DNA of 64,000 nucleotides from Escherichia coli phage phiS. The stretch lies in sequence record PP449093.1. The stretch is one strand, 5' to 3'. The position numbers and the translations under genes were made by a program. Positions 35,273-60,780 of this stretch are shown one piece after another. The notes beneath the pieces are model-generated. The model worked only from the letters and a program-made list of their open reading frames with translations. It had not been told where the DNA came from and did no database searches. How positions within the stretch are numbered: the stretch's first letter is position 1; each line of letters begins with the position of its first letter.

Positions 35273-35280
35273 AATAAGTG

Positions 35281-35309
35281 TTGACGCGGGGAGAAATCCC
35301 CGCTATAAT
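35281..35309 (+). promoter_or_regulatory. early promoter with palindromic GC-rich spacer
   Basis: TTGACG, spacer CGGGGAGAAATCCCCGC (17 nt dyad), TATAAT. Confidence 0.65.
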
Positions 35310-47299: not shown

Positions 47300-47313
47300 T
47301 TCAAAAAAAGTTG

Positions 47314-47342
47314 TTGACAGGGGATCACCGATCCCCTATACT
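47314..47342 (+). promoter_or_regulatory. early promoter with palindromic spacer GGGGATCACCGATCCCC
   Basis: TTGACA, 17-nt perfect dyad spacer containing two GATC, TATACT. Confidence 0.65.
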
Positions 47343-50569: not shown

Positions 50570-50582
50570 TTTAAAAAAGTTG

Positions 50583-50611
50583 TTGACGGGGATCGGGAGA
50601 TCCCCTATAAT
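50583..50611 (+). promoter_or_regulatory. early promoter with palindromic spacer GGGGATCGGGAGATCCCC
   Basis: TTGACG, 17 nt GC-rich dyad spacer with two GATC, TATAAT. Confidence 0.65.
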
Positions 50612-50895: not shown

Positions 50896-51147
50896 ATGGC
50901 TAACATCGAAACCGCAAAGAAAATCGCTAAAGACCTGAACGTTAAAGGCTTCCGTAAACTGAAATTACAGCGTGTACGCTACACCATCGGCAAACAGTGC
51001 TCTTTCATGAGCGAAGAAATTGCTAACAGCCTGATTGATAACCTGATTGCGGCTGGCTGGGAAGTTGCGGATCTGAAAACTTGCCGCGAACTGGCTAACA
51101 AAGGTCTTTTAGATTCTGTTACTATCAAACCAATGGGGGCAGCGTGA
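50896..51147 (+). CDS. hypothetical early protein (83 aa)
   Basis: ATG after GGAGAATCAAACA. Confidence 0.6.
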   Translation: MANIETAKKIAKDLNVKGFRKLKLQRVRYTIGKQCSFMSEEIANSLIDNLIAAGWEVADLKTCRELANKGLLDSVTIKPMGAA

Positions 51148-51680
51148 ACAATATAGACTGGAAGAAATACTTTAATTATGATCCTGATACTGGTATTCTT
51201 ACATGGAAGGAGAGAACAGATATACACCCATCAAGAATAAAACAATGGAATGCTGCATGGGCTGGAAAGGAGGTCGGGTCACTAGGAAGTGGTGGACGTT
51301 ATCTTGAATCGTCAATAAAAATTGACGGTAAAATTATTAACTACAAAGTTCATCGAGTATGTTATATTATCCACAATGGACCTATACCAGAAGGATATGA
51401 AGTAGACCATATTAATCACATTAAGACAGATAATAGAGCGGTGAATTTTGAACTTAAGACACATCAAGACAACATGAGGAATCAAACAAAATCTAAAAAG
51501 AATACAAGCGGACACAGTGGAATACATAAAAACAAATACAATAAATGGGTAGTTAGAATTGGCAGCGGTCGTCGTGGTGATAGAAAATATCTAGGATGCT
51601 TCGATACATTAGAAGAAGCTATAGAGGTTAGAACCAAAGCAGAAAGAGAGCATGGCTATCATGAAAACCACGGAAAGTAA
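51144..51680 (+). CDS. HNH homing endonuclease with AP2-like DNA-binding domain
   Basis: VDHINHIKTDNRAVN HNH motif; C-terminal SGHSGIHKNKYNKWVVRI...YLGCFDTLEEA; GTG start overlapping the upstream stop. Confidence 0.7.
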   Translation: MNNIDWKKYFNYDPDTGILTWKERTDIHPSRIKQWNAAWAGKEVGSLGSGGRYLESSIKIDGKIINYKVHRVCYIIHNGPIPEGYEVDHINHIKTDNRAVNFELKTHQDNMRNQTKSKKNTSGHSGIHKNKYNKWVVRIGSGRRGDRKYLGCFDTLEEAIEVRTKAEREHGYHENHGK

Positions 51681-52386
51681 ACTTATATTCTGTAATTTTG
51701 ATGGGTCCGGTATCATGGGTCTAGAATGGGCGAAAGCAGGTCATAAGGTGATCTGCTTTAACGCAGATGATGCGGATCATGGAACATATAAAAAATACAA
51801 CACTCGATTTGAGCATCCCAACCTAACATATGTTAATGCATGGATTGACCTAGATTGGTTGGAAAGGGCAATGGACCTTGAATGGGGCAAACCGGATATG
51901 ATCTTTGCGTTTCCTAGCTGTTCAAATTTAGCGGTTAGTGGCGCTGCACATTTTGAGCGTAAGCGAAAAACTCTAGGTCCACTCATTCAGCATAGAGATG
52001 TTCAAACAGCTAAAATAACCGCTTATTTGGGTGAATGGCTAGGAGTTCCCTACATGATAGAGAATCCTGTAAGCGTTATCTCTAGCATGTGGCGTAAGCC
52101 TGATTATATGTTCCATCCGTGGGAATATGGCGGTTATTTGCCGGAAGATGATAAACATCCTACTTTTCCTGAGTATATTGCCGCCCGTGATATGTACCCG
52201 AAAAGGACTTGCTTATGGACCGGACAAGGCTTTATAATGCCAGAAAAGAAACCGTTGCAGATTAATAAAGGGTACAGTAAACAGCATTCTAAGCTAGGCG
52301 GGAAAGGAACGAAAACAAAGACTATAAGGTCACTTACCCCGCGAGGATTCGCAAAGGCAGTATTTGAAGCAAATAAGGATCTATAA
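51652..52386 (+). CDS. compact C5-cytosine-methyltransferase-fold protein (244 aa, no obvious target-recognition domain)
   Basis: Motif I FCNFDGSGIMG; motif IV-like FAFPSCSNLAVSG (Cys kept, Ser where PC has Pro); motif VI ENP; C-terminal RSLTPRGFAKAV resembles motif IX. Confidence 0.5.
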   Translation: MAIMKTTESKLIFCNFDGSGIMGLEWAKAGHKVICFNADDADHGTYKKYNTRFEHPNLTYVNAWIDLDWLERAMDLEWGKPDMIFAFPSCSNLAVSGAAHFERKRKTLGPLIQHRDVQTAKITAYLGEWLGVPYMIENPVSVISSMWRKPDYMFHPWEYGGYLPEDDKHPTFPEYIAARDMYPKRTCLWTGQGFIMPEKKPLQINKGYSKQHSKLGGKGTKTKTIRSLTPRGFAKAVFEANKDL

Positions 52387-52715
52387 TGAGATTGTTTAAG
52401 TATTCGCTAACGTCAAATTACGATAAACAAGGTCATTGCATCCGTTGCCCTGATTGTCATAACCATAACATCGAAAGCAAGATCACCGATCATATTGATG
52501 GACTTTGGTCGCCAGCAAGTGAAATAGAATACTATTGCGCTGATTGTGGAATTGTAGTAGCATATTGGGCATACGGATCATATGATCCATACTTCCAGAT
52601 GGGAGAGCGTTCAATCCCTGCGCTTATCTGGAGAATTAAGAACAATATCCGCCATTCATGGGATGAGTTATTAAAAGATATTGATTTACGTGATGATCCA
52701 TTCAGGAGACTATAA
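52386..52715 (+). CDS. zinc-ribbon protein (109 aa)
   Basis: CIRCPDC and YCADCG cysteine clusters; start overlaps upstream stop. Confidence 0.5.
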   Translation: MRLFKYSLTSNYDKQGHCIRCPDCHNHNIESKITDHIDGLWSPASEIEYYCADCGIVVAYWAYGSYDPYFQMGERSIPALIWRIKNNIRHSWDELLKDIDLRDDPFRRL

Positions 52716-52716
52716 C

Positions 52717-53235
52717 ATGAACAGATTAACCCCTAAACGCCGTTACTATACCAATACTAAAAACTTTGTCATCTCTGTTTATGAGGCGTGGTTAGAAGAT
52801 GGCTATATCAACATGAACCCAGATTATCAGCGTCCTTTGGTATGGGACACCGAAAACAAACGTATGTTTATCGAAAACCTGATTAATGATTTTCCGGTTG
52901 GTGCTATCGCAATGGCTAAGATTGATGATGGCTCTCGATATGAGATCGAAATCGTGGACGGTAAACAGCGTTTAAACGCAATATTCTCCTTCATGAAGGA
53001 TGAGTTTAGCATTGCTGGTAATGATGATTCTATGCTGTATTACAGTGATTTTACGCCAGCAGAAAAGCGACGTTTCCGAAATCTCGGACTACCCGCGATA
53101 ATGATGGAAGAGAGCACACGAGAAGACCGATTAGAGTATTTCTACAAAACAAACTTTTTCGGTGTCCCTCAATCGGAAGAACATCGCCAGCATGTGATTT
53201 CCCTATTGCAAGATGAGCAATTAAAAAATAACTAA
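52717..53235 (+). CDS. DUF262 / ParB-like nuclease-domain protein (172 aa)
   Basis: YQRPLVW and IVDGKQRLNAI (DGQQR-type) motifs; ATG after AGGAGAC; ORF-track start 52681 is TTG. Confidence 0.55.
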   Translation: MNRLTPKRRYYTNTKNFVISVYEAWLEDGYINMNPDYQRPLVWDTENKRMFIENLINDFPVGAIAMAKIDDGSRYEIEIVDGKQRLNAIFSFMKDEFSIAGNDDSMLYYSDFTPAEKRRFRNLGLPAIMMEESTREDRLEYFYKTNFFGVPQSEEHRQHVISLLQDEQLKNN

Positions 53236-53242
53236 AAAGTTG

Positions 53243-53272
53243 TTGACAGGGGGATCGGTGATCCCCTATAAT
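53243..53272 (+). promoter_or_regulatory. early promoter with palindromic spacer GGGGGATCGGTGATCCCC
   Basis: TTGACA, 18 nt dyad spacer with two GATC, TATAAT. Confidence 0.65.
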
Positions 53273-53308
53273 GCACACATACCGAAACGAACTACTAAGG
53301 AGTATCAA

Positions 53309-53521
53309 ATGGCTAACATCGAAATCATCATTACCGACGTAACTTATGACCGCATTAACGAAATCGGTACTGCATTACTGGAAGATGAAACAACTCGTAC
53401 CATCAACTACGCAGAATACGTTGAAATGCGTGGCTGGATTAAACGAGTAGGAAAATATACCCTGATTGAAAAAGACTATTCAGGATATACCTTAGAGCAA
53501 TTGCTCGATGGTGCATTATAA
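53309..53521 (+). CDS. hypothetical early protein (70 aa)
   Basis: ATG after AAGGAGTATCAA; N-terminus MANIE shared with the 50896 product. Confidence 0.55.
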   Translation: MANIEIIITDVTYDRINEIGTALLEDETTRTINYAEYVEMRGWIKRVGKYTLIEKDYSGYTLEQLLDGAL

Positions 53522-53525
53522 TAAA

Positions 53526-53546
53526 GGGGGCGTTAAGCCCCGTTTT
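53526..53546 (+). terminator. terminator-like hairpin
   Basis: GGGGC-GTTAA-GCCCC followed by GTTTTC. Confidence 0.55.
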
Positions 53547-53587
53547 CATAAATATAGGTTTATAGGTTATCAACTAGAGGATATAAA

Positions 53588-55639
53588 ATGTTTAACTTAG
53601 AAATCGACGATCTAATGATTGAATCTTTCGAGAAATGGCTGTTGACGGAAGAGGAAGAAAACTTTGGTAGTATTGCCCCGGTACAGTGCTTAAAGCCTAA
53701 GCAGAATCCTAAACAGCTTTTTGCAGTACAGACACGCGATAAAGATGTGATTGTCCGTCTTTGTAACTTCACCAACAAAACACCTAAAATCATTCGTATG
53801 GGTGACAAGACAGCACATGTTGTACTGTGCGAAATGAACAAAAGCGGTCGTATTGTACAGCTTAAAAATGGTCTAGGCGATAACCCGATTGCAGTTATGG
53901 CAAGTGCTTTTGATGTGGTTATGGAAACAGCCCGTAAAGCGCAATTAGACGCTGTTATGTTCCGTTTTAACGTATCCCGCATGAAAGGTAAGACCGAACT
54001 GGTTAAGCGCGTTATAGAGCGTTTGGTGCGTCGTACACCGAAGTTTGAAGTATTCCAGCAGGAAGTAATGACCAGCAAAAAGATCGCTTTAGTTGTTGTC
54101 AAGCGTCGCGGTATGGCGATTGATAAGATTAAAGGGATTAAACTTGATGATTCCTTGTTCACTAAAGTAGAAAGTGATTTAGGTGATCGCTGGGTATCTA
54201 AGGCTACTGGTGAATCTCTGACTAAAGATGAGGCGTATGCGGCTAGTCTTGTGTCAGAAGAAGAACGAAACGCGGAAGCGGAACAACGCGTAGCGGCTAA
54301 ATCTCGTTTGACTAAAGAAGAAATGCTGAAAACTCAAGCGACCTATAACAGCGACTATGTGAATCATCCAGAAAAAATTAATCTTAAACCGGAAGAAGAT
54401 ATCACCGAAGCCGAACCTAAGAAACAGTTTAATACTCTGATTGATCGTCAAGCCTTAGAACGTTCAACCGCTCGTTCTCTGAATGAATGGACAAGTGATA
54501 TTATCACTCGCTATGGTTTCATGCGTACTATTTTTGAAAGCGAAGCCGATGCAAAATACGCAGTAAGCGAACTGGTAAAAGTTCAGGATCAATATGATCC
54601 GTTGTCTGCGGAAGTTATCGCAGCATCAATCAAACGCTTAAAAGAAATCATGAGCGAGGAAGTATTCGAAAACAAGATCACCGCCCTGGCAATGGATCGA
54701 GTAGACCAGTCTATGCCAGCAGATGTAAAAGCTGAAATGCTGCGTAGTCATATCACCCAGATTAAAACCGATGCCCTACGTAATGTTGCTTCCGGTATGT
54801 TTGAAGCAATTGCTAGCAACATGGGTGAAATGATGGCAGATATTGATCTTGATCTGCCGGGCGCGGAAGGTTTTGTATTGAGCGAATATGCCGATGCAGC
54901 ATACATCAATATGAACAACTTCCTAACCGACCGTAAGCTGGAAGAGTTTGAAGGCATCGCAGATCCAGAAGAATTGGTCAAGATGTGCGATGCACTGGAT
55001 AATGCCTTCTCTAACTATGGTGTTAAACTTGATCCGGGTACTATTCTGTATCGTGGTATGGACTTCCGGTCGCAAATGTGGGAAACTGCACGTAAGCAAA
55101 AAGCGTTTTACTTTAAAAACTATGTGAGCACTTCCCTTGCACCTAACATTTTTGGTGGCTGGAATGCAAACGTGGCTAGTGCCATTGCTGGTGTTGATTC
55201 TATGGCTGGCTCTCGCGGTGAAGGTGGCGCTAATGTTGCTTTCTCCATTGCTGGCGCGGAAAACATCCCTGTATTGCCAGTAGGTAACAAAGCATTTGCT
55301 TACAAAGAATGCGAGATTTTACTTCCTCGCGGTGTTGTGTTATCCTTTGATACGGTAACTCGTGCTACGGCATCGACGGATTCACAAGAAACATATTACA
55401 TTGAGGCACATATTATGAACAAAAGTGAACTGGCAGCATTACAAGAATCTGGCGAAATGATCGCGGACGGTGATGCATTCATCCGTGAAGGTGTTGTTAA
55501 ACCTGCTTCTGACCTGTCTTTCTCCAGCTTCATTAGCGAAGCTAAAACCGAACGTAAGAAAGCAGATAAGGCAACTCTACGTCAGCTTATCGCTGATCTG
55601 GTATCTGTAGACGCAATGCCAGATAAATTTAAAATGTAA
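53588..55639 (+). CDS. alt: Alt-like ADP-ribosyltransferase (head-packaged type)
   Basis: 683 aa; N-terminal region resembles T4 Alt (LCNFTN...MGDK..H, LFTKVES.LGD); C-terminal R (YRG) - STS (VSTSLA) - ExE (ECEILLPRG) motifs. Confidence 0.8.
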   Translation: MFNLEIDDLMIESFEKWLLTEEEENFGSIAPVQCLKPKQNPKQLFAVQTRDKDVIVRLCNFTNKTPKIIRMGDKTAHVVLCEMNKSGRIVQLKNGLGDNPIAVMASAFDVVMETARKAQLDAVMFRFNVSRMKGKTELVKRVIERLVRRTPKFEVFQQEVMTSKKIALVVVKRRGMAIDKIKGIKLDDSLFTKVESDLGDRWVSKATGESLTKDEAYAASLVSEEERNAEAEQRVAAKSRLTKEEMLKTQATYNSDYVNHPEKINLKPEEDITEAEPKKQFNTLIDRQALERSTARSLNEWTSDIITRYGFMRTIFESEADAKYAVSELVKVQDQYDPLSAEVIAASIKRLKEIMSEEVFENKITALAMDRVDQSMPADVKAEMLRSHITQIKTDALRNVASGMFEAIASNMGEMMADIDLDLPGAEGFVLSEYADAAYINMNNFLTDRKLEEFEGIADPEELVKMCDALDNAFSNYGVKLDPGTILYRGMDFRSQMWETARKQKAFYFKNYVSTSLAPNIFGGWNANVASAIAGVDSMAGSRGEGGANVAFSIAGAENIPVLPVGNKAFAYKECEILLPRGVVLSFDTVTRATASTDSQETYYIEAHIMNKSELAALQESGEMIADGDAFIREGVVKPASDLSFSSFISEAKTERKKADKATLRQLIADLVSVDAMPDKFKM

Positions 55640-55656
55640 TTTTTAAGAAATAATGG

Positions 55657-55685
55657 TTGACTCAAACGGGGACTAGTTTTATACT
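55657..55685 (+). promoter_or_regulatory. promoter-like element with hairpin (TTGACT, 17 nt spacer, TATACT)
   Basis: CGGGGACTAG..ACTAGCCCCG dyad around the -10; may also terminate alt transcripts. Confidence 0.5.
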
Positions 55686-55717
55686 AGCCCCGTTTTCTGT
55701 TATATGGGAGGTTTAAA

Positions 55718-56542
55718 ATGTTCAAGAAATTACAGGATTTTCGTCTTTCGGAAGAAGCACGCGAATCAATGATGGAACGTATGGATAATTACATCGAAAC
55801 ATATGGCATCGAGGGGATTAATGGTTACATGATCACTGAGATGATCAGCGATCAGATTAACTTTGATGATTATGTGAAGGTTATCCGCTTCCTTGAGCGT
55901 GAGACACAAGATTATGGATTTGTCAAGAAAATCATTAATGTGATGTATGAAGTACACTCCGAAGACTTTGGAGATAATGTATTCAAACATTACAAACATA
56001 ACAATATAACCCCAGCAGAATATAATGCAATCTGTGATTATGTGTCTGAACAATACGAATGGGTAAATGGTGCTCTCTTAGGGGAAGAAGACATGACCGA
56101 TGAGATATCAGAGATTGTTGATTTGATGGATTGTGTCATGGATAAAACCGAAAAGTTAAACGGTACTCTTTATCGCGGTCAACATCTTGACATTCAGACA
56201 ATAGAGCGTATTATTGAAGATAAGGAATTTACCTTTAAAAACTTTGTGTCGACCAGCATGACACCAATCATCTTTGGAGGCTGGCTTTCAAACAGCACTA
56301 GCCTTTATTGTGAGAATCGATATGAATCAATGACCGGAAAGATGCAACATTCTTGTAATGTATCGTGGGTAATTGACGTAAAAGATCATAAAGGTTTTGT
56401 CGTTGGGTCAATTGCATGGAACCCTTGCGAATGTGAAGTAATTTTACCGCGCGGGACTTGCGTCAAGGTAAACGACGTAGTAGAATCTTTCGGCGATGAG
56501 AATCGTAGACAATTTACAATTTTCGGTGAGGTGACTAAATGA
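55718..56542 (+). CDS. second ADP-ribosyltransferase (Alt C-terminal domain paralog / Mod-like)
   Basis: LYRG, VSTSMT and PCECEVILPRG motifs parallel the catalytic region of the upstream Alt-like protein. Confidence 0.65.
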   Translation: MFKKLQDFRLSEEARESMMERMDNYIETYGIEGINGYMITEMISDQINFDDYVKVIRFLERETQDYGFVKKIINVMYEVHSEDFGDNVFKHYKHNNITPAEYNAICDYVSEQYEWVNGALLGEEDMTDEISEIVDLMDCVMDKTEKLNGTLYRGQHLDIQTIERIIEDKEFTFKNFVSTSMTPIIFGGWLSNSTSLYCENRYESMTGKMQHSCNVSWVIDVKDHKGFVVGSIAWNPCECEVILPRGTCVKVNDVVESFGDENRRQFTIFGEVTK

Positions 56543-57024
56543 AAATGATTAAACTGATTGGTCTTGCGGCTGCATTCATGCTTACTGGTTGTGCCAACAT
56601 GGAAGCTATGATGAATGCTAAATCAGATCCGGTTTTCTTGCTTCGTGAATGTAAAGCAGCATATGCAAGTGATGGTCAGATCGAATCATGCTTTATTTCT
56701 AAAATGGAACGTCGAGACGTAGATCGAGTTAAAGTTGGTTTAGCACCACAAACTCAGATGTTCAAGGATGCAATCAAAGAAGCGCGGGAAGAGAAAGAAC
56801 AAGAAGAAAAGAAGCGTCAAGAAGAATTGCGCAAGCAGAAAGAAGAGTCTAAACAACTTGATAAGATGAAAGCACGGGATCGCTGTATCATCATGTCTGA
56901 CATGCAGATAGAGCAAGAAGCAAGAAAGGCAGCATTAAACGGTGATTATGACCGTTATGAAGAACTTAACAGCGCAGAATTTCAAACTAAGGCACTAAAA
57001 TATTGCAATGATTTAGCAAAATAA
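56539..57024 (+). CDS. lipoprotein with coiled-coil region
   Basis: Signal peptide with lipobox LTGC; Lys/Glu-rich helical segment. Confidence 0.6.
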   Translation: MKMIKLIGLAAAFMLTGCANMEAMMNAKSDPVFLLRECKAAYASDGQIESCFISKMERRDVDRVKVGLAPQTQMFKDAIKEAREEKEQEEKKRQEELRKQKEESKQLDKMKARDRCIIMSDMQIEQEARKAALNGDYDRYEELNSAEFQTKALKYCNDLAK

Positions 57025-57051
57025 AAAGGCGGGGGATAATCCCCGCCTTTC
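57025..57051. terminator. bidirectional terminator between convergent genes
   Basis: AAAGGCGGGGA-TAA-TCCCCGCCTTT. Confidence 0.7.
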
Positions 57052-57056
57052 GCTTA

Positions 57057-57989
57057 TCAGAACCAGTTAGTGACAGTATTCACCACACGCCCACCAACGC
57101 CATTTAGACGCGATAAAGCATTACCAGCAGCAGATAACCCACTATCAAGTAAATTATTGCCGAAAGTGTTTGTTATTGCGTTTATTGCCTTATCCTCAAT
57201 CCATTCTCGCGCGGCTTGCTCTCCTACAGCACCAGTTTGCATAGAACGATATGCGAAAGTAACATCGAATGTTGTGATTTCGTTGTTGTTTTCATAGTTT
57301 AATTCCGGTGCACTCACACCAACAGGAACACAACCATTAAACATCATGATCGTGTGAGGAACTCCCATTCGGTTATGTAAGTTGACCTGAATATCTGCTT
57401 CAACGTCAACAGGAAGCGCACGAAGCCCTGTAACGGGGTCTTCTACTGAGTTAACCCAATCCTGCATTGCTCTATAGTTTGATGCGCTAGAGTCCATTCT
57501 AAAGCTCAATACAAGCGGATCAAAATCACGTCCGGTAATTCGAATGTTTGGCGCATTGTGGTTACGGTCCATTTCATAATTCAATCTGTTTTCTGGAACC
57601 TTAACAGCATACACCAGAAGACCGCTTGTCTTATATGCCATATTGAACCAGTCAAGCGCATACGTACCAACATCAAATTGCCCCAGAAGAGATTGAACTA
57701 CGCGGGATGACATTGCACCTAAAAGATACTTTTTGACACCGGATGAATCAACAGCACGCCTAACACCCTGTACAGCAAGATTTGTTAATGCGTCAGTATA
57801 ATCACCACGAGTAATCCCGAAATAGTCATTTAATGCATTTGGTATAATATCATATACCGCACCGCCCATACTTTCTAGGATCGCTTGTGTCTTATTACTT
57901 GGAGTGGTGGCAAATGCCACGCTGAATAAGTTGGATCGCTGAAAGTCAAGGTTAGCGGCTTGTTCGTTAAAATCATTTAAATCAAACAT
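57057..57989 (-). CDS. 54: baseplate tail-tube initiator gp54
   Basis: Resembles T4 gp54 (NRLNYEMDRNHNAPNIRITGRDFDPLVLSFRMDS.A.NYRAMQDWVNSV.DPVTGLRALP.DVEADIQVNLH). Confidence 0.9.
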   Translation of the reverse strand: MFDLNDFNEQAANLDFQRSNLFSVAFATTPSNKTQAILESMGGAVYDIIPNALNDYFGITRGDYTDALTNLAVQGVRRAVDSSGVKKYLLGAMSSRVVQSLLGQFDVGTYALDWFNMAYKTSGLLVYAVKVPENRLNYEMDRNHNAPNIRITGRDFDPLVLSFRMDSSASNYRAMQDWVNSVEDPVTGLRALPVDVEADIQVNLHNRMGVPHTIMMFNGCVPVGVSAPELNYENNNEITTFDVTFAYRSMQTGAVGEQAAREWIEDKAINAITNTFGNNLLDSGLSAAGNALSRLNGVGGRVVNTVTNWF

Positions 57990-59047
57990 TATACCGCACT
58001 CCCAAATATAGTACCACGGGAAAGTGTCAAGATCTCTCTAAATGATACTTCCAGAACAAAGGTACTAGGCAAGTTAGGAGAAATAGCAAGGCCATTAAAC
58101 TTACCATCAGGCGACTTGTCCAGACGTACACTTGAGATCTGAGCGGGACCAAATGCATCGCTACGCCCTTCAAACGATGTACGCTTACCGAAGTTAGAGA
58201 TCATCCATATTGTCGGGTTAGATACAGTAATTGCGTTTGATAGAAAATCGGTGATCCCTTCAAACAGCGTATCATTTCTCTTTGCCTCGGCTGGAGTGGA
58301 TTTGCTCAATAGTGTATTTTTATACCACGCATCAACTTCCGCTTTTAATTCTTTTGCGGTGCTGGAAATACCACTAGAACCATAAGACAACTCTAAAAAC
58401 GTTTCGTATATGATCAGAATATTGCGAAGGTCTTCAATACTACGTGGGGTTAGATGCCATACGTAGTTTTTCGTTCGTGCGTCAGCACCCGCATACATGC
58501 TTCGCGCAGTATTATAAATCTGTTCACCGTGATCGGCAAGGTATCCACCAGTAATACTTTCGATACCACCAAAAACGGCAGTAGATGCCATATTAGAAAG
58601 AGCACCGCCTAAAGTACCACCGCCGCGAGAAATAACAGATTCACCAACATCATTAAACTTATGGCTGGCAGCGTCAACGTCAGATTGACTACGAGGAAGA
58701 AGAATATTAGCAATTGCCTCTCGGTCAAATGCAACATTTCTCCCACCCAAATTTAAATCAAAACCAGCGATATTAACACTACCGCCAAAACCGCTAGCAA
58801 CATTTTTCTTTTTCCTGAAATCACGCAACGATCCGGTAGTACGAGATGTATAATCGTATGCAGTGAATAACAGACCATTATTATATAAGTCGTTGATATA
58901 ATAACCGCTAGCATCATTACCGCTAGCACGTTCAGCGGGGAATTGAGCGGTTAATGTTTTCCCTTTATTTTTTGAGGTAAAACCAGCGGAGGTTTTAACC
59001 CCCGCTTTAAAGCTATCAACGACATCATTGATAACACTAATTTTCAT
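57989..59047 (-). CDS. 48: baseplate tail-tube cap gp48
   Basis: 352-aa ORF between gp54 and gp29; size and order as T4 gp48. Confidence 0.75.
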   Translation of the reverse strand: MKISVINDVVDSFKAGVKTSAGFTSKNKGKTLTAQFPAERASGNDASGYYINDLYNNGLLFTAYDYTSRTTGSLRDFRKKKNVASGFGGSVNIAGFDLNLGGRNVAFDREAIANILLPRSQSDVDAASHKFNDVGESVISRGGGTLGGALSNMASTAVFGGIESITGGYLADHGEQIYNTARSMYAGADARTKNYVWHLTPRSIEDLRNILIIYETFLELSYGSSGISSTAKELKAEVDAWYKNTLLSKSTPAEAKRNDTLFEGITDFLSNAITVSNPTIWMISNFGKRTSFEGRSDAFGPAQISSVRLDKSPDGKFNGLAISPNLPSTFVLEVSFREILTLSRGTIFGSAV

Positions 59048-60780
59048 TAAAAGTTCCCCATATTAATTGTACCCGGGGCATCAATTCTAGTTGTTGGTGC
59101 ACCCTGTTTAATAGTTCTATTGTTTGTTACAATTTGTGTATTATTTACGTTTGAGGTCTGGTTTGTCGTTTGTTGCTGGATTGCAGCTTGTTTCTGCATT
59201 TGTTCAGTACGTTCCGCTTGTTTTGCTGTTTCCGTTTCAGTTGCAGGAACCGGCTGTGTTTGCACAACACCCTTAGTTTTATCAGCATACATCTCATCAA
59301 ATTTTTCAATAAGACGCTCTAACTGAGAACGATCACTTTCAACTAATGTAGGATCTTGAACTTGCTCACGGTAAACATCAATATCCTTTTTCAACTCTCC
59401 CATTCTTTCTTTGTCATAGTCACCGCTCAAATTCTCCATAACTTCATTAATATTATTGATCGCGCCCTCGCTTTTAATTCTAAGTTTACGACTAGCAGAT
59501 CGTTGTTCAGCAGAAACAGACTTGTATTCCCCGCGTTTTAATTCTTCTTGTCGTTTCTCTGCGTCAACATCCTTTTGATCTCGCCAACCCAGACTAACAA
59601 GACCTTCGTTAACTTTATCCTTAATAGAATCCCCAATAGCTTCGCCAATATCACGGGCTTTTCCGGTCCAACCAGTACGCTCTCCATATTTGTCTTCTTC
59701 GTGTTCAGACTCGACCTTATCCATTAATTCGAGTTCTCTTTCATTTGGCGTATAGCCTTGAGCGACAGCAGATTTTAAAGCACCATATTCTAACTTATCG
59801 GCATAATCACCCATACCAGGGATCATACGAAGAATTTTAGCAATACCAGTAGTGATAATTCGATCAAGTTGGATAAAGGTTTTATAGAATGCATCACCAA
59901 TACCCATAACAAGAGATTTAATTAACTCTCCATATTCGCCTTTAGACCAATAATCTCGAACCTGACGAACAGTAGTTAAAATATCGCTAATAGGACCAGC
60001 CCATCCTCCGGCCTTATCCATAAATTCCTTGAATTTTGTTTCGAATAAATCACTCCAATATCTGAAATGAACCATCAGGGTATCAATGACAAAAACAATA
60101 CCCATCAAAATAGCACCCCATTTTGCGGCTTCTGCCATAGCGGTCAATGTGATCTTAAATAACATCCCTAAGACCTTATTAGAGATACCTATGGTTTCTT
60201 TAAATCCTCCACGAACAACTTTAAGAAGATTTTCCATAGAATCCGCATTACGCTTATCTGTGGCGTTCTTTTTCTTTCGGTCATCAACATCTGGTTTTTT
60301 CTTTGGAAGACCTTGATAGTTGTCATTGTTAGGCTGTTCCGGTACAGTAGGCAAAACTGGCTGAGGTGATGGCATTGTTTGCGGTTGTTCCGGTTTTTTC
60401 AATGCTTCTTCAATCGCACCAATACCACTAGCCATTTTACTGACAACACCAAATCTACGTTCCATCATAACACCAAAACCACGTAATTTCTCATTCATCT
60501 GAGAAGAGAAATTATTGAGTTTTTGCAATTCTTCATAAGTTTTTTGGGTATTGCCAGCGGTAGATTGTGTATTTTCTGCCGTCAATTCATTGGCTGCGGT
60601 GTTATCCTCTACCGCACCAACAACTTCATTAGATTTTTGTTCCACTGTCTCCGCCACCAATTCGGTAGCGGCTTGCAAATTATCAATAGAATCAAGTTTA
60701 TCTAATTTGTTAATTTTATCAATCGGGTTTTCTTCCGCTTCCTTGCGCATCCCGCGAAATGATGTTAATGCGTCATTCAT
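59047..60780 (-). CDS. 29: baseplate hub subunit / tail length determinator gp29
   Basis: 577-aa ORF in T4 gp29 position; coiled-coil-rich. Confidence 0.75.
   Translation of the reverse strand: MNDALTSFRGMRKEAEENPIDKINKLDKLDSIDNLQAATELVAETVEQKSNEVVGAVEDNTAANELTAENTQSTAGNTQKTYEELQKLNNFSSQMNEKLRGFGVMMERRFGVVSKMASGIGAIEEALKKPEQPQTMPSPQPVLPTVPEQPNNDNYQGLPKKKPDVDDRKKKNATDKRNADSMENLLKVVRGGFKETIGISNKVLGMLFKITLTAMAEAAKWGAILMGIVFVIDTLMVHFRYWSDLFETKFKEFMDKAGGWAGPISDILTTVRQVRDYWSKGEYGELIKSLVMGIGDAFYKTFIQLDRIITTGIAKILRMIPGMGDYADKLEYGALKSAVAQGYTPNERELELMDKVESEHEEDKYGERTGWTGKARDIGEAIGDSIKDKVNEGLVSLGWRDQKDVDAEKRQEELKRGEYKSVSAEQRSASRKLRIKSEGAINNINEVMENLSGDYDKERMGELKKDIDVYREQVQDPTLVESDRSQLERLIEKFDEMYADKTKGVVQTQPVPATETETAKQAERTEQMQKQAAIQQQTTNQTSNVNNTQIVTNNRTIKQGAPTTRIDAPGTINMGNF

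Follow-up and report, generated by a model that had tools for sequence, protein, structure and literature searches.

A predicted early-type promoter upstream of an Alt-derived ADP-ribosyltransferase and a polymorphic lipoprotein cassette in the alt region of an RB49-like coliphage

The alt region of Escherichia coli phage phiS (PP449093.1), analyzed here within a stretch of 64,000 nucleotides (the window), appears to be divided into two transcription units that would bring the same enzymology to bear on the host at two times and add an envelope protein, a reading to which we assign a probability of about 0.6. The region comprises three open reading frames (ORFs) on the plus strand: 53588-55639 (683 aa), the orthologue of T4 alt; 55718-56542 (274 aa), a second ADP-ribosyltransferase (ART) gene whose product we call ART2; and 56539-57024 (161 aa), which encodes a predicted lipoprotein. 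From the signals that surround these genes we infer that ART2 and the lipoprotein are early products and that alt is a late product. The initial annotation of this DNA had proposed the same three genes, all of which are present at these coordinates, and the motifs that it quoted (LYRG, STS and ECE) are found in both ARTs. It had also placed the third gene ahead of a baseplate cluster, and the opposite-strand baseplate-hub genes gp54 (57057-57989, minus strand), gp48, gp29, gp28 and gp27 indeed lie beyond it and converge on the group.

By sequence comparison, the locus belongs to an RB49-like (Krischvirus) T4-type coliphage and is an alt region that has been annotated before. Megablast returned 58 Krischvirus records that cover the region at 95-99% nucleotide identity (98.3-98.7% for the 25 best-matching of the 58), among them RB49, phi1/Phi1, JSE, GEC-3S and W115. 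RefSeq labels RB49p184 as alt, RB49p183 as 'ADP-ribosyltransferase; similar to C-terminal part of T4 Alt protein' and RB49p182 as hypothetical; the phi1 counterparts are ORF184, ORF183 and ORF182, and these genes are held in GenBank records NC_005066 (RB49) and EF437941 (phi1). RB49p183/phi1 ORF183 and RB49p182/phi1 ORF182 are the same genes as those of ART2 and the lipoprotein (99.3% and 96.9% identical to RB49, respectively). Nothing substantive differs in the RB49 and phi1 sources, which contain no analysis of expression, activity or polymorphism. The W115 record names the third gene 'putative lipoprotein', based on LipoP, and the UniRef name for the KFS-EC copy is 'Lipoprotein'. Nolan et al. 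2006 (Virol J 3:30, PMC1524935) described RB49ORF183c, 44RRORF188c and T4 alt.-1/alt.-2 as paralogous duplications of the adjacent alt. The gene arrangement is ordinary, catalogued and published for RB49, and thus no novelty; what remains of interest is the lipoprotein cassette and an Alt-derived enzyme that appears to have been rewired to early expression.

Results

Only 78 nt separate alt and ART2 (aataatgGTTGACTcaaACGGGGACTAGTTTTATACTAGCCCCGTTTTCTg...ggaggtttaaaATG), and within them a promoter and a terminator are superimposed. Sequence inspection and a promoter scan place a PeSL-type sigma-70 early promoter at 55656-55685 (plus strand), with GTTGACT, a 17-nt spacer, TATACT and an A-rich stretch upstream. 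The alt terminator hairpin with its U-run spans 55664-55698 (plus strand; RNA fold -18.9 kcal/mol, z -5.45), and its loop and 3′ arm contain the -10 hexamer. The pattern GTTGAC-N17-19-TATAMT has 11 matches in the window, where 0.04 would be expected, and 10 of the 11 are on the plus strand. The ART2 promoter fits the form that Nolan et al. 2006 (PMC1524935) described for RB49 early promoters, in which position -33 is a G and A-rich sequence lies upstream, and the GEC-3S record annotates an identical promoter prediction upstream of ART2. The composite of promoter and hairpin is retained in L008 and L011, relatives whose proteins are 44-45% identical, and two stem pairs are compensated between the window and these sequences (T-A to C-G and C-G to A-T).

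In Arbiol et al. 2010 (PMC2839356), PeSLs of RB49 and phi1 are sigma-70 promoters combined with a stem-loop terminator, and lacZ reporters demonstrated both promoter and terminator activity for other elements of this class. The element between alt and ART2 resembles the PeSLs treated there and in Comeau et al. 2014 (PMC4122927): it has a consensus sigma-70 promoter, an AT-rich stretch and a GC stem-loop, and it is intergenic and upstream of a non-core ORF. We therefore regard it as a predicted PeSL that would act as both promoter and terminator. It is unlike several other copies in the window in that its stem-loop overlaps the -10 and doubles as the alt terminator, while the hairpin of the others sits in the spacer. 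PeSL promoters of that other form, with a GC-rich palindromic spacer (GGGGATC...GATCCCC) between GTTGAC and TATAAT/TATACT, are found at 35280-35309, 47313-47342, 50582-50611 and 53242-53272 (plus strand). With a PeSL-type sigma-70 promoter of its own inside the alt terminator, ART2 is probably early and non-packaged.

The stop codon of ART2 overlaps the ATG of the lipoprotein gene by 4 nt (ATGA), and a GAGG Shine-Dalgarno sequence lies upstream, an arrangement that points to translational coupling of the two as a two-gene operon. A bidirectional terminator at 57024-57051, between the lipoprotein gene and gene 54, folds at -19.2 and -20.4 kcal/mol on the two strands; it is annotated on both strands in GEC-3S and kept in L008.

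The signals upstream of alt are of another kind, in the order hairpin, CATAAATA, Shine-Dalgarno sequence and ATG. The terminator hairpin (GGGGCGTTAAGCCCC followed by a T-run; 53527-53541, plus strand; RNA fold -13.1 kcal/mol, z -2.8) was detected by a terminator scan and has a counterpart at the matching site in T4; a terminator upstream of alt was reported in 5 of 6 T4-like genomes (Nolan et al. 2006, PMC1524935). The late-promoter-like CATAAATA (53547-53554, plus strand), located 34 nt 5′ of the alt ATG, matches T4 TATAAATA at 7 of 8 positions. At the equivalent position after its hairpin T4 has the canonical late promoter TATAAATA, and L008, the Alt of which is 45% identical, has AATAAATA at the corresponding site. 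The heptamer ATAAATA, the late-promoter core, is depleted across the window (7 observed versus 24 expected; 100 of 100 shuffles had at least as many), and its presence upstream of alt is therefore unlikely to be idle; the full TATAAATA occurs 4 times in the window. CATAAATA would thus serve as the late promoter of alt. As a separate observation, the 3′ arms and U-runs of the terminators upstream of alt (53536-53558) and of ART2 (55686-55708), both on the plus strand, are 78% identical over 23 nt (AGCCCCGTTTTC...), a likeness that fits a shared PeSL-like origin and makes the two a possible recombination substrate.

The 683-aa protein (53588-55639, plus strand) is the T4 Alt orthologue by PHROG, PF03496 and collinearity. 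It matches the Alt family phrog_802 at 3e-180 over residues 16-683 and PF03496 at 1.5e-09, is collinear with T4 Alt over residues 31-681 (27% identity, 4e-62) and is 99% identical to RB49p184; alt adjoins gene 54, in the gene order of T4. Its catalytic residues are R489 in LYRG (aa 487-490), S514-T-S516 and E574-x-E576 within ECE (574-576). The two proteins thus share full-length collinearity and the R, STS and ExE motifs, and the genes share their gene 54 neighbor and the upstream layout of terminator and late promoter. No solved-structure relative of Alt was found by sequence search.

ART2 (55718-56542, plus strand; RB49p183 / phi1 ORF183 type) matches phrog_15144 at 5e-197 and PF03496 at 4.6e-16, its 59.2 bits being well above the family cut-off of 23.4. 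Its relation to Alt is evident from several comparisons: it matches the Alt PHROG at 1e-44 over residues 9-268, Alt and ART2 find each other by BLASTP at 2e-16, and a 66-nt DNA repeat of 71% identity joins the STS regions of the two genes. By these measures the paralogy of Alt and ART2 is far beyond chance. As the initial annotation had claimed, the catalytic set of Alt is repeated in ART2 in full: R153 in LYRG (aa 151-154; codon 56174-56176), S178-T-S180 (56249-56257) and E238-x-E240 within ECE (238-240; 56429-56437), all on the plus strand, and the R, STS and ExE of ART2, Alt and T4 Alt (LYRS, STS, E-M-E) occupy the same alignment columns. Loss of the glutamate pair on alignment had been named beforehand as the outcome that would speak against a second ART; E238 and E240 are both kept. 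These residues, together with R153 and S178-T-S180, are invariant in 9 homologues that range from 83% down to 23% identity. E238-C-E240 also aligns with the E-Q-E of T4 ModA, although for the Mod proteins the ExE column alone is reliable, as MAFFT misplaces the R and S motifs of ModA and ModB.

The same annotation had described ART2 as a stand-alone paralog of the Alt catalytic domain. Its paralogy is borne out, but the copy extends beyond the catalytic core: the ART2-family profile aligns to Alt residues 346-612, which comprise a helical lead-in as well as the core. What ART2 lacks is Alt residues 1 to about 345 and a C-terminal tail of about 70 aa, which bears conserved DGD..ETG and MPxKF motifs; that tail is retained by the short Alt-like proteins P0007 (415 aa) and P0008 (316 aa). 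An AlphaFold2 model of ART2 (predicted local distance difference test, pLDDT, 82.4; predicted template modeling score, pTM, 0.80) has Vis, C3bot, Certhrax and CDTa/iota/C2-I as its top Foldseek matches (E about 1e-10; probability 1.00 for Vis, C3 and iota). By sequence, the nearest solved chains are marginal only (Tre1 at 0.06; SpvB; Vis), and NCBIfam and PADLOC scans gave no match for ART2. The ExE form of the ADP-ribosylating turn-turn (ARTT) motif is typical of arginine-specific members of the clade, and we infer by analogy that the acceptor residue of ART2 is arginine.

ART2 is 31% identical to T4 Alt over 181 aa (87 bits) and 37% identical to its own neighbor Alt over 109 aa (66 bits). 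Among phage isolates, full-length ART2 is found in the 58 Krischvirus only, at no less than 97% identity and with the frame intact in all. Metagenomic relatives were recovered at 83%, 63%, 48%, 45% and 44% identity, and those with context retain the order Alt, ART2, a lipoprotein of about 160 aa and opposite-strand gp54, even where ART2 is 44-45% identical. The ratio of nonsynonymous to synonymous substitution rates (dN/dS) of ART2 is 0.03-0.05. The match of ART2 to T4 Alt outscores that to the neighboring Alt, gene order is kept at 44-45% identity and dN/dS is low; sequence comparison therefore indicates that it is an old, functional paralog of Alt, neither a fresh duplicate nor a relic. A recent tandem duplication was ruled out on the first two counts, the arrangement predating 55% protein divergence. 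In L008, Alt and ART2 are 44-45% identical to those of the window versus 81% for the adjacent structural genes; the ARTs evolve much faster, as would be anticipated of proteins that interact with the host.

RB49 has a single modB-like gene beside srd, at the site syntenic with T4. It shows no detectable relationship to ART2 (E 0.07), and the Mod proteins gave no score against the ART2/Alt profile, aligning in fragments only. We therefore rejected ART2 as an orthologue of ModA or ModB, the modB-like gene of RB49 being separate and without a match to it. With Alt, ART2 and a single Mod, Krischvirus thus encodes at least three ARTs, like T4, in a different composition.

The third gene begins with a signal peptide (56539-56592, plus strand) and continues as a mature protein of 143 aa (56593-57024, plus strand; phrog_16112), which forms the variable cassette described below. 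Its N-terminus, MKMIKLIGLAAAFMLTGC, carries a lipobox L-T-G-C with Ala at +2, and the signal peptide (MKMIKLIGLAAAFM-LTGC) has a positively charged n-region, a hydrophobic h-region and a lipobox of the form [LVI][ASTVI][GAS]C ending at Cys18. The lipobox cysteine is present in every member of the family, and +2 is Ala or Ser, never Asp. Under the +2 rule of the E. coli Lol system, Ala or Ser at this position predicts the outer membrane, and the lipoprotein is predicted to be sorted there. Cys38, Cys51, Cys116 and Cys156 are conserved in all relatives, which suggests two disulfides.

The protein had been called a coiled-coil lipoprotein. The lipoprotein part of that name stands, given the LTGC lipobox and the LipoP result in W115; the coiled coil calls for correction. 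The AlphaFold2 model (pLDDT 86.6) is all-helical, with one continuous helix at 72-133, and residues 80-112 are 82% E/K/R/D/Q with only 3 hydrophobic residues, so that the central segment of the model resembles a charged single helix of the ER/K type more than it does a heptad coiled coil. Full-length family members (at least 78% identity) are 146-172 aa long and, where alignments are available, indels fall mainly in this central charged segment.

A lipoprotein profile searched against 1.84 billion representatives recovered 11 clusters, which are lipobox proteins of about 155-175 aa except for one fragment and one coiled-coil false positive. There was no family match in Pfam, NCBIfam or PADLOC; the fold search returned no match in PDB, the Spackle entries included, and only the protein's own family in BFVD; and no homologue was found in PLSDB plasmids or GTDB genome representatives. 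The Cor PHROG (phrog_1119) was matched at 0.0025, over residues 1-54 only, mostly signal peptide. T4 alt.-3 was considered as a counterpart and ruled out, being unrelated and devoid of a signal peptide.

The mature part of this protein varies sharply between phages that are otherwise almost the same. In RB49, amino-acid identity to the window is 99.0% for Alt, 99.3% for ART2, 97.2% for the mature lipoprotein, 99.7% for gp54 and 98.0% for gp48; in G37-3 the corresponding values are 99.6, 99.3, 24.3, 99.4 and 98.3%, and in Whisky 99.3, 98.9, 26.3, 86.5 and 74.7%. L014 shows 98.5, 97.4, 79.2, 94.5 and 88.6%, and L008, in the same order, 45.4, 43.6, 41.0, 81.0 and 81.0%. The boundaries of the exchange are abrupt. 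In the comparison with G37-3, nucleotide identity falls from 98-100% to about 40% near 56580 and returns to 98-100% near 57010; in that with Whisky it breaks at nt 56594, in the lipobox codon. The signal peptide is nearly invariant between classes, identical through Cys18 in Whisky and over the first 11 codons in G37-3. The synonymous divergence (dS) from L014 is higher in the lipoprotein (0.97) than in ART2 (0.20).

We distinguish at least three allele classes: A, with about 50 isolates that include phi1 and RB49; B1, with Whisky and JK32; and B2, with G37-3, PHB13, E26, 011D4, AV108 and PTE-Eco09. B1 and B2 lipoproteins are 48% identical to each other, and within classes dN/dS is 0.12, which indicates purifying selection. 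The class-B alleles are farther from the window allele than is the L008-type allele, which accompanies 44%-identical ARTs, and were therefore imported rather than evolved in place. Linkage to neighboring or adhesin alleles was also considered. The lipoprotein alleles go with gp54/48 alleles in Whisky and JK32, a linkage that G37-3, PHB13, 011D4 and E26 do not keep, and B2 occurs with both RB49-type and Whisky-like gp54/48. Linkage to the gp38 adhesin fails as well, since RB49-type gp38 is found with A, B1 and B2, and so is the 82% type. Given that all three classes occur across gp38 types and B2 across gp54/48 types, the cassette moves independently of hub and adhesin genes. On this comparison the mature lipoprotein is swapped as a cassette by recombination between near-identical phages. 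No description of the polymorphism was found in the searchable literature, and the comparison of Arbiol et al. 2010 would not show it because phi1 and RB49 are both class A.

Around these genes, G+C content is 0.38-0.45 in the three-ORF region, like its surroundings, and no Rfam family scored above noise in 53000-57500. The neighboring gp54, the baseplate tail-tube initiator (PF06841, phrog_45 and the RB49 annotation), stands at the edge of the late structural module. Farther into that module, the window encodes a single 577-aa gp29 at 59047-60780, and the Whisky record (L006, 6017-7501) has two annotated ORFs there, of 178 aa and about 370 aa by record coordinates, with a DNA identity of about 73% to the window; the Whisky gene may be split or mis-annotated, or the difference may be a real rearrangement.

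Upstream of alt, a 178-aa HNH_3 endonuclease ORF (51144-51680, plus strand; PF13392, 3e-17) lies between the homologues of RB49p190 and of the DNA methyltransferase RB49p189. A megablast of 51100-51700 against 50,697 phage records matched about 50 nt of flank only, and this putative HNH homing endonuclease appears, by sequence, to be unique to this phage among sequenced Krischvirus; at this site RB49 has an unrelated 81-aa ORF. At 52681-53235 (plus strand) there is a 184-aa stand-alone DUF262/GmrSD_N (ParB-like) protein (PF03235, 4.7e-20; PADLOC NsnA model, 1.3e-20), which corresponds to only the N-terminal half of such defense nucleases and is kept in RB49 (RB49p187) and L014.

Discussion

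The sequence evidence suggests the following course of events at the RB49-type alt locus. Alt would be produced late, travel in the phage head and be injected, to ADP-ribosylate arginines of host proteins at infection, by analogy with T4 Alt, for which the mechanism is covered in reviews; its role here is assigned by homology. ART2 would be synthesized in the cell within minutes of infection rather than carried in the virion, and would act as a second-wave arginine mono-ADP-ribosyltransferase, in the role of T4 ModA and ModB. The lipoprotein, in which a charged helix of variable length connects two helical modules that are probably disulfide-bonded, would act early in the periplasm or at the outer membrane, for instance to counter superinfecting phages or a host function seated in the envelope. 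A superinfection-exclusion factor is our best guess for it, though a tentative one, made because of its early-type promoter, predicted export and outer-membrane sorting, and allelic replacement. It is possible, again with the odds against it, that this narrow phage-only family is a new T4-type factor of superinfection exclusion or envelope conflict with allele-specific targets, partnered with an early, non-packaged ART2 whose targets are distinct from those of Alt.

Several points weigh against this scheme. Reports on expression, proteomics or enzymatic activity of Krischvirus ART2 or lipoprotein were not found in the searchable literature (for virion proteomics, partly with a poorly targeted search). 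The proposed late promoter of alt has C where T4 has T at the first position. The alt terminator may leak, and late read-through could then yield ART2 for packaging; the packaging determinants of Alt are undefined, and the N- and C-terminal regions missing from ART2 are no proof of exclusion from the head. On the side of the lipoprotein, no relative of known function by sequence or fold was found in Pfam, NCBIfam, PADLOC, PDB, BFVD or the 1.84 billion representatives, and its alleles co-vary neither with gp38 nor consistently with gp54/48, so that no exclusion partner is identified.

The possibility of a leaky terminator leads to the view that ART2 is a second virion-packaged and injected enzyme, made late by read-through from the alt promoter. 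The gene lies directly downstream of alt on the same strand and beside late structural genes, intrinsic terminators are rarely complete, and Iyer et al. 2022 hold that ARTs in T4-like alt contexts are often head-packaged. We consider this unlikely in view of the -18.9 kcal/mol terminator and the separate early promoter, both kept across about 55% protein divergence, of the absence from ART2 of the N-terminal 345 aa of Alt and of the tail that P0007 and P0008 retain, and of its co-translation with a predicted secreted lipoprotein rather than a virion-type partner. Far less credible still is the idea that alt was once partly duplicated and that ART2 is what is left of the copy, in decay and with no enzymatic role. 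The comparison with T4, in which the interval from alt to gene 54 contains broken duplicates of the alt 5′ part, invites it, and Nolan et al. 2006 (PMC1524935) group RB49ORF183c with such duplications; yet the frame is intact in 58 isolates (at least 97% identity), dN/dS is 0.03-0.05, no catalytic residue varies in Alt or in homologues of 44% identity or more, and the fold model is confident.

For the lipoprotein, two known modes of exclusion deserve comparison with our more general guess. As a Spackle/Imm analogue, it would act in the periplasm on the incoming tail-tip machinery (gp5 lysozyme, gp27/gp29 hub/tape measure). It is a small, all-helical, Cys-paired exported protein like Spackle; no Sp or Imm homologue was detected in the window or in RB49 1-50,000, syntenic sites included, although this search covered about 110 of 164 kb; and the gene abuts hub genes, with the divergence of Whisky and L014 running on into gp54/48. 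As G37-3, PHB13, 011D4 and E26 pair B2 with RB49-type gp54/48, and the PDB search found no structural likeness to Spackle entries, we find this improbable. A receptor mask of the Cor/Llp type, directed at the receptor of the phage's own adhesin and blocking superinfection and loss of progeny on debris, would account for a predicted outer-membrane lipoprotein with an early-type promoter and for a strong allelic polymorphism of the kind typical of conflict genes, and there is the weak match to the Cor PHROG (0.0025). That match is limited to residues 1-54, mostly signal peptide, the gene adjoins gp54 rather than the receptor-binding gp37/38, every one of the allele classes (A, B1, B2) is found with at least two types of gp38 adhesin, and the fold is unlike any known protein in PDB or BFVD, all of which makes such a mask quite improbable. 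We give next to no credence to a toxin-immunity-like pair of ART2 and lipoprotein or to a lysis spanin. The coupling by the ATGA overlap and a pairing kept in distant relatives would suit the former, but an exported lipoprotein cannot neutralize a cytoplasmic NAD-dependent enzyme, and 24%-identical lipoprotein alleles stand beside 99%-identical ART2, which shows no co-evolution. Outer-membrane spanins (o-spanins) are lipoproteins too, but no inner-membrane spanin (i-spanin) gene is adjacent or embedded and there is no C-terminal transmembrane segment (the protein ends ...KYCNDLAK); at 143 aa, charged and helical, the mature form is not the short, proline-rich protein expected.

Set beside known systems, the two-unit organization that we favor combines familiar parts. 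Compared with T4 Alt, ART2 is without the N-terminal ~345 residues and the ~70-aa tail and has an early sigma-70 rather than a late promoter. T4 (alt.-1/alt.-2) and Aeromonas phage 44RR (ORF187c/188c) likewise carry partial or full copies of alt in the interval between it and gene 54. The T4 copies are interrupted and correspond to the 5′ part of the gene, whereas ART2 corresponds to the 3′ part, is intact and evolves under purifying selection; the Aeromonas-phage sequence that best matches ART2 in phage records, from L9-6, is about 28% identical, so these are probably non-orthologous copies, a comparison that did not include 44RR itself. In its predicted use, as a small R-S-E ART behind an early sigma-70-type promoter, ART2 is like ModA and ModB, although there is no detectable sequence relationship and T4 has two Mods where Krischvirus has one. 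It also shares its fold and R-S-ExE arrangement with the bacterial toxins of PF03496 (C3 exoenzyme, Vis, Certhrax and the iota/CDTa/C2-I toxins), from which it differs in its low identity (15-20%), an extra N-terminal helical region and a predicted location in the cytoplasm of the infected cell rather than secretion. The lipoprotein recalls Cor (phi80/N15), Llp (T5) and T4 Spackle and Imm as a small exported phage protein expressed before lysis; of these, Cor and Llp are lipoproteins of the outer membrane, and Spackle is helical and disulfide-bonded. It has neither sequence nor fold homology to any of them, and its gene is unlinked to the adhesin.

How phages stage the modification of their host over time is still being worked out, and the ADP-ribosyltransferases of T4 are under active study, for example in RNAylation by ModB (PMC10468400). 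RB49-type phages offer a natural variant, with one injected Alt, one Alt-derived enzyme apparently rewired to early expression and a single Mod. Their DNA contains unmodified cytosine, and they are hence easier to engineer. A comparison of the targets of Alt and ART2 would tell whether the route of delivery or the divergence of the catalytic domain sets the choice of substrate. The lipoprotein cassette, with 24%-identical alleles between identical flanks, is a natural experiment on the envelope function that drives diversification in therapeutic Krischvirus.

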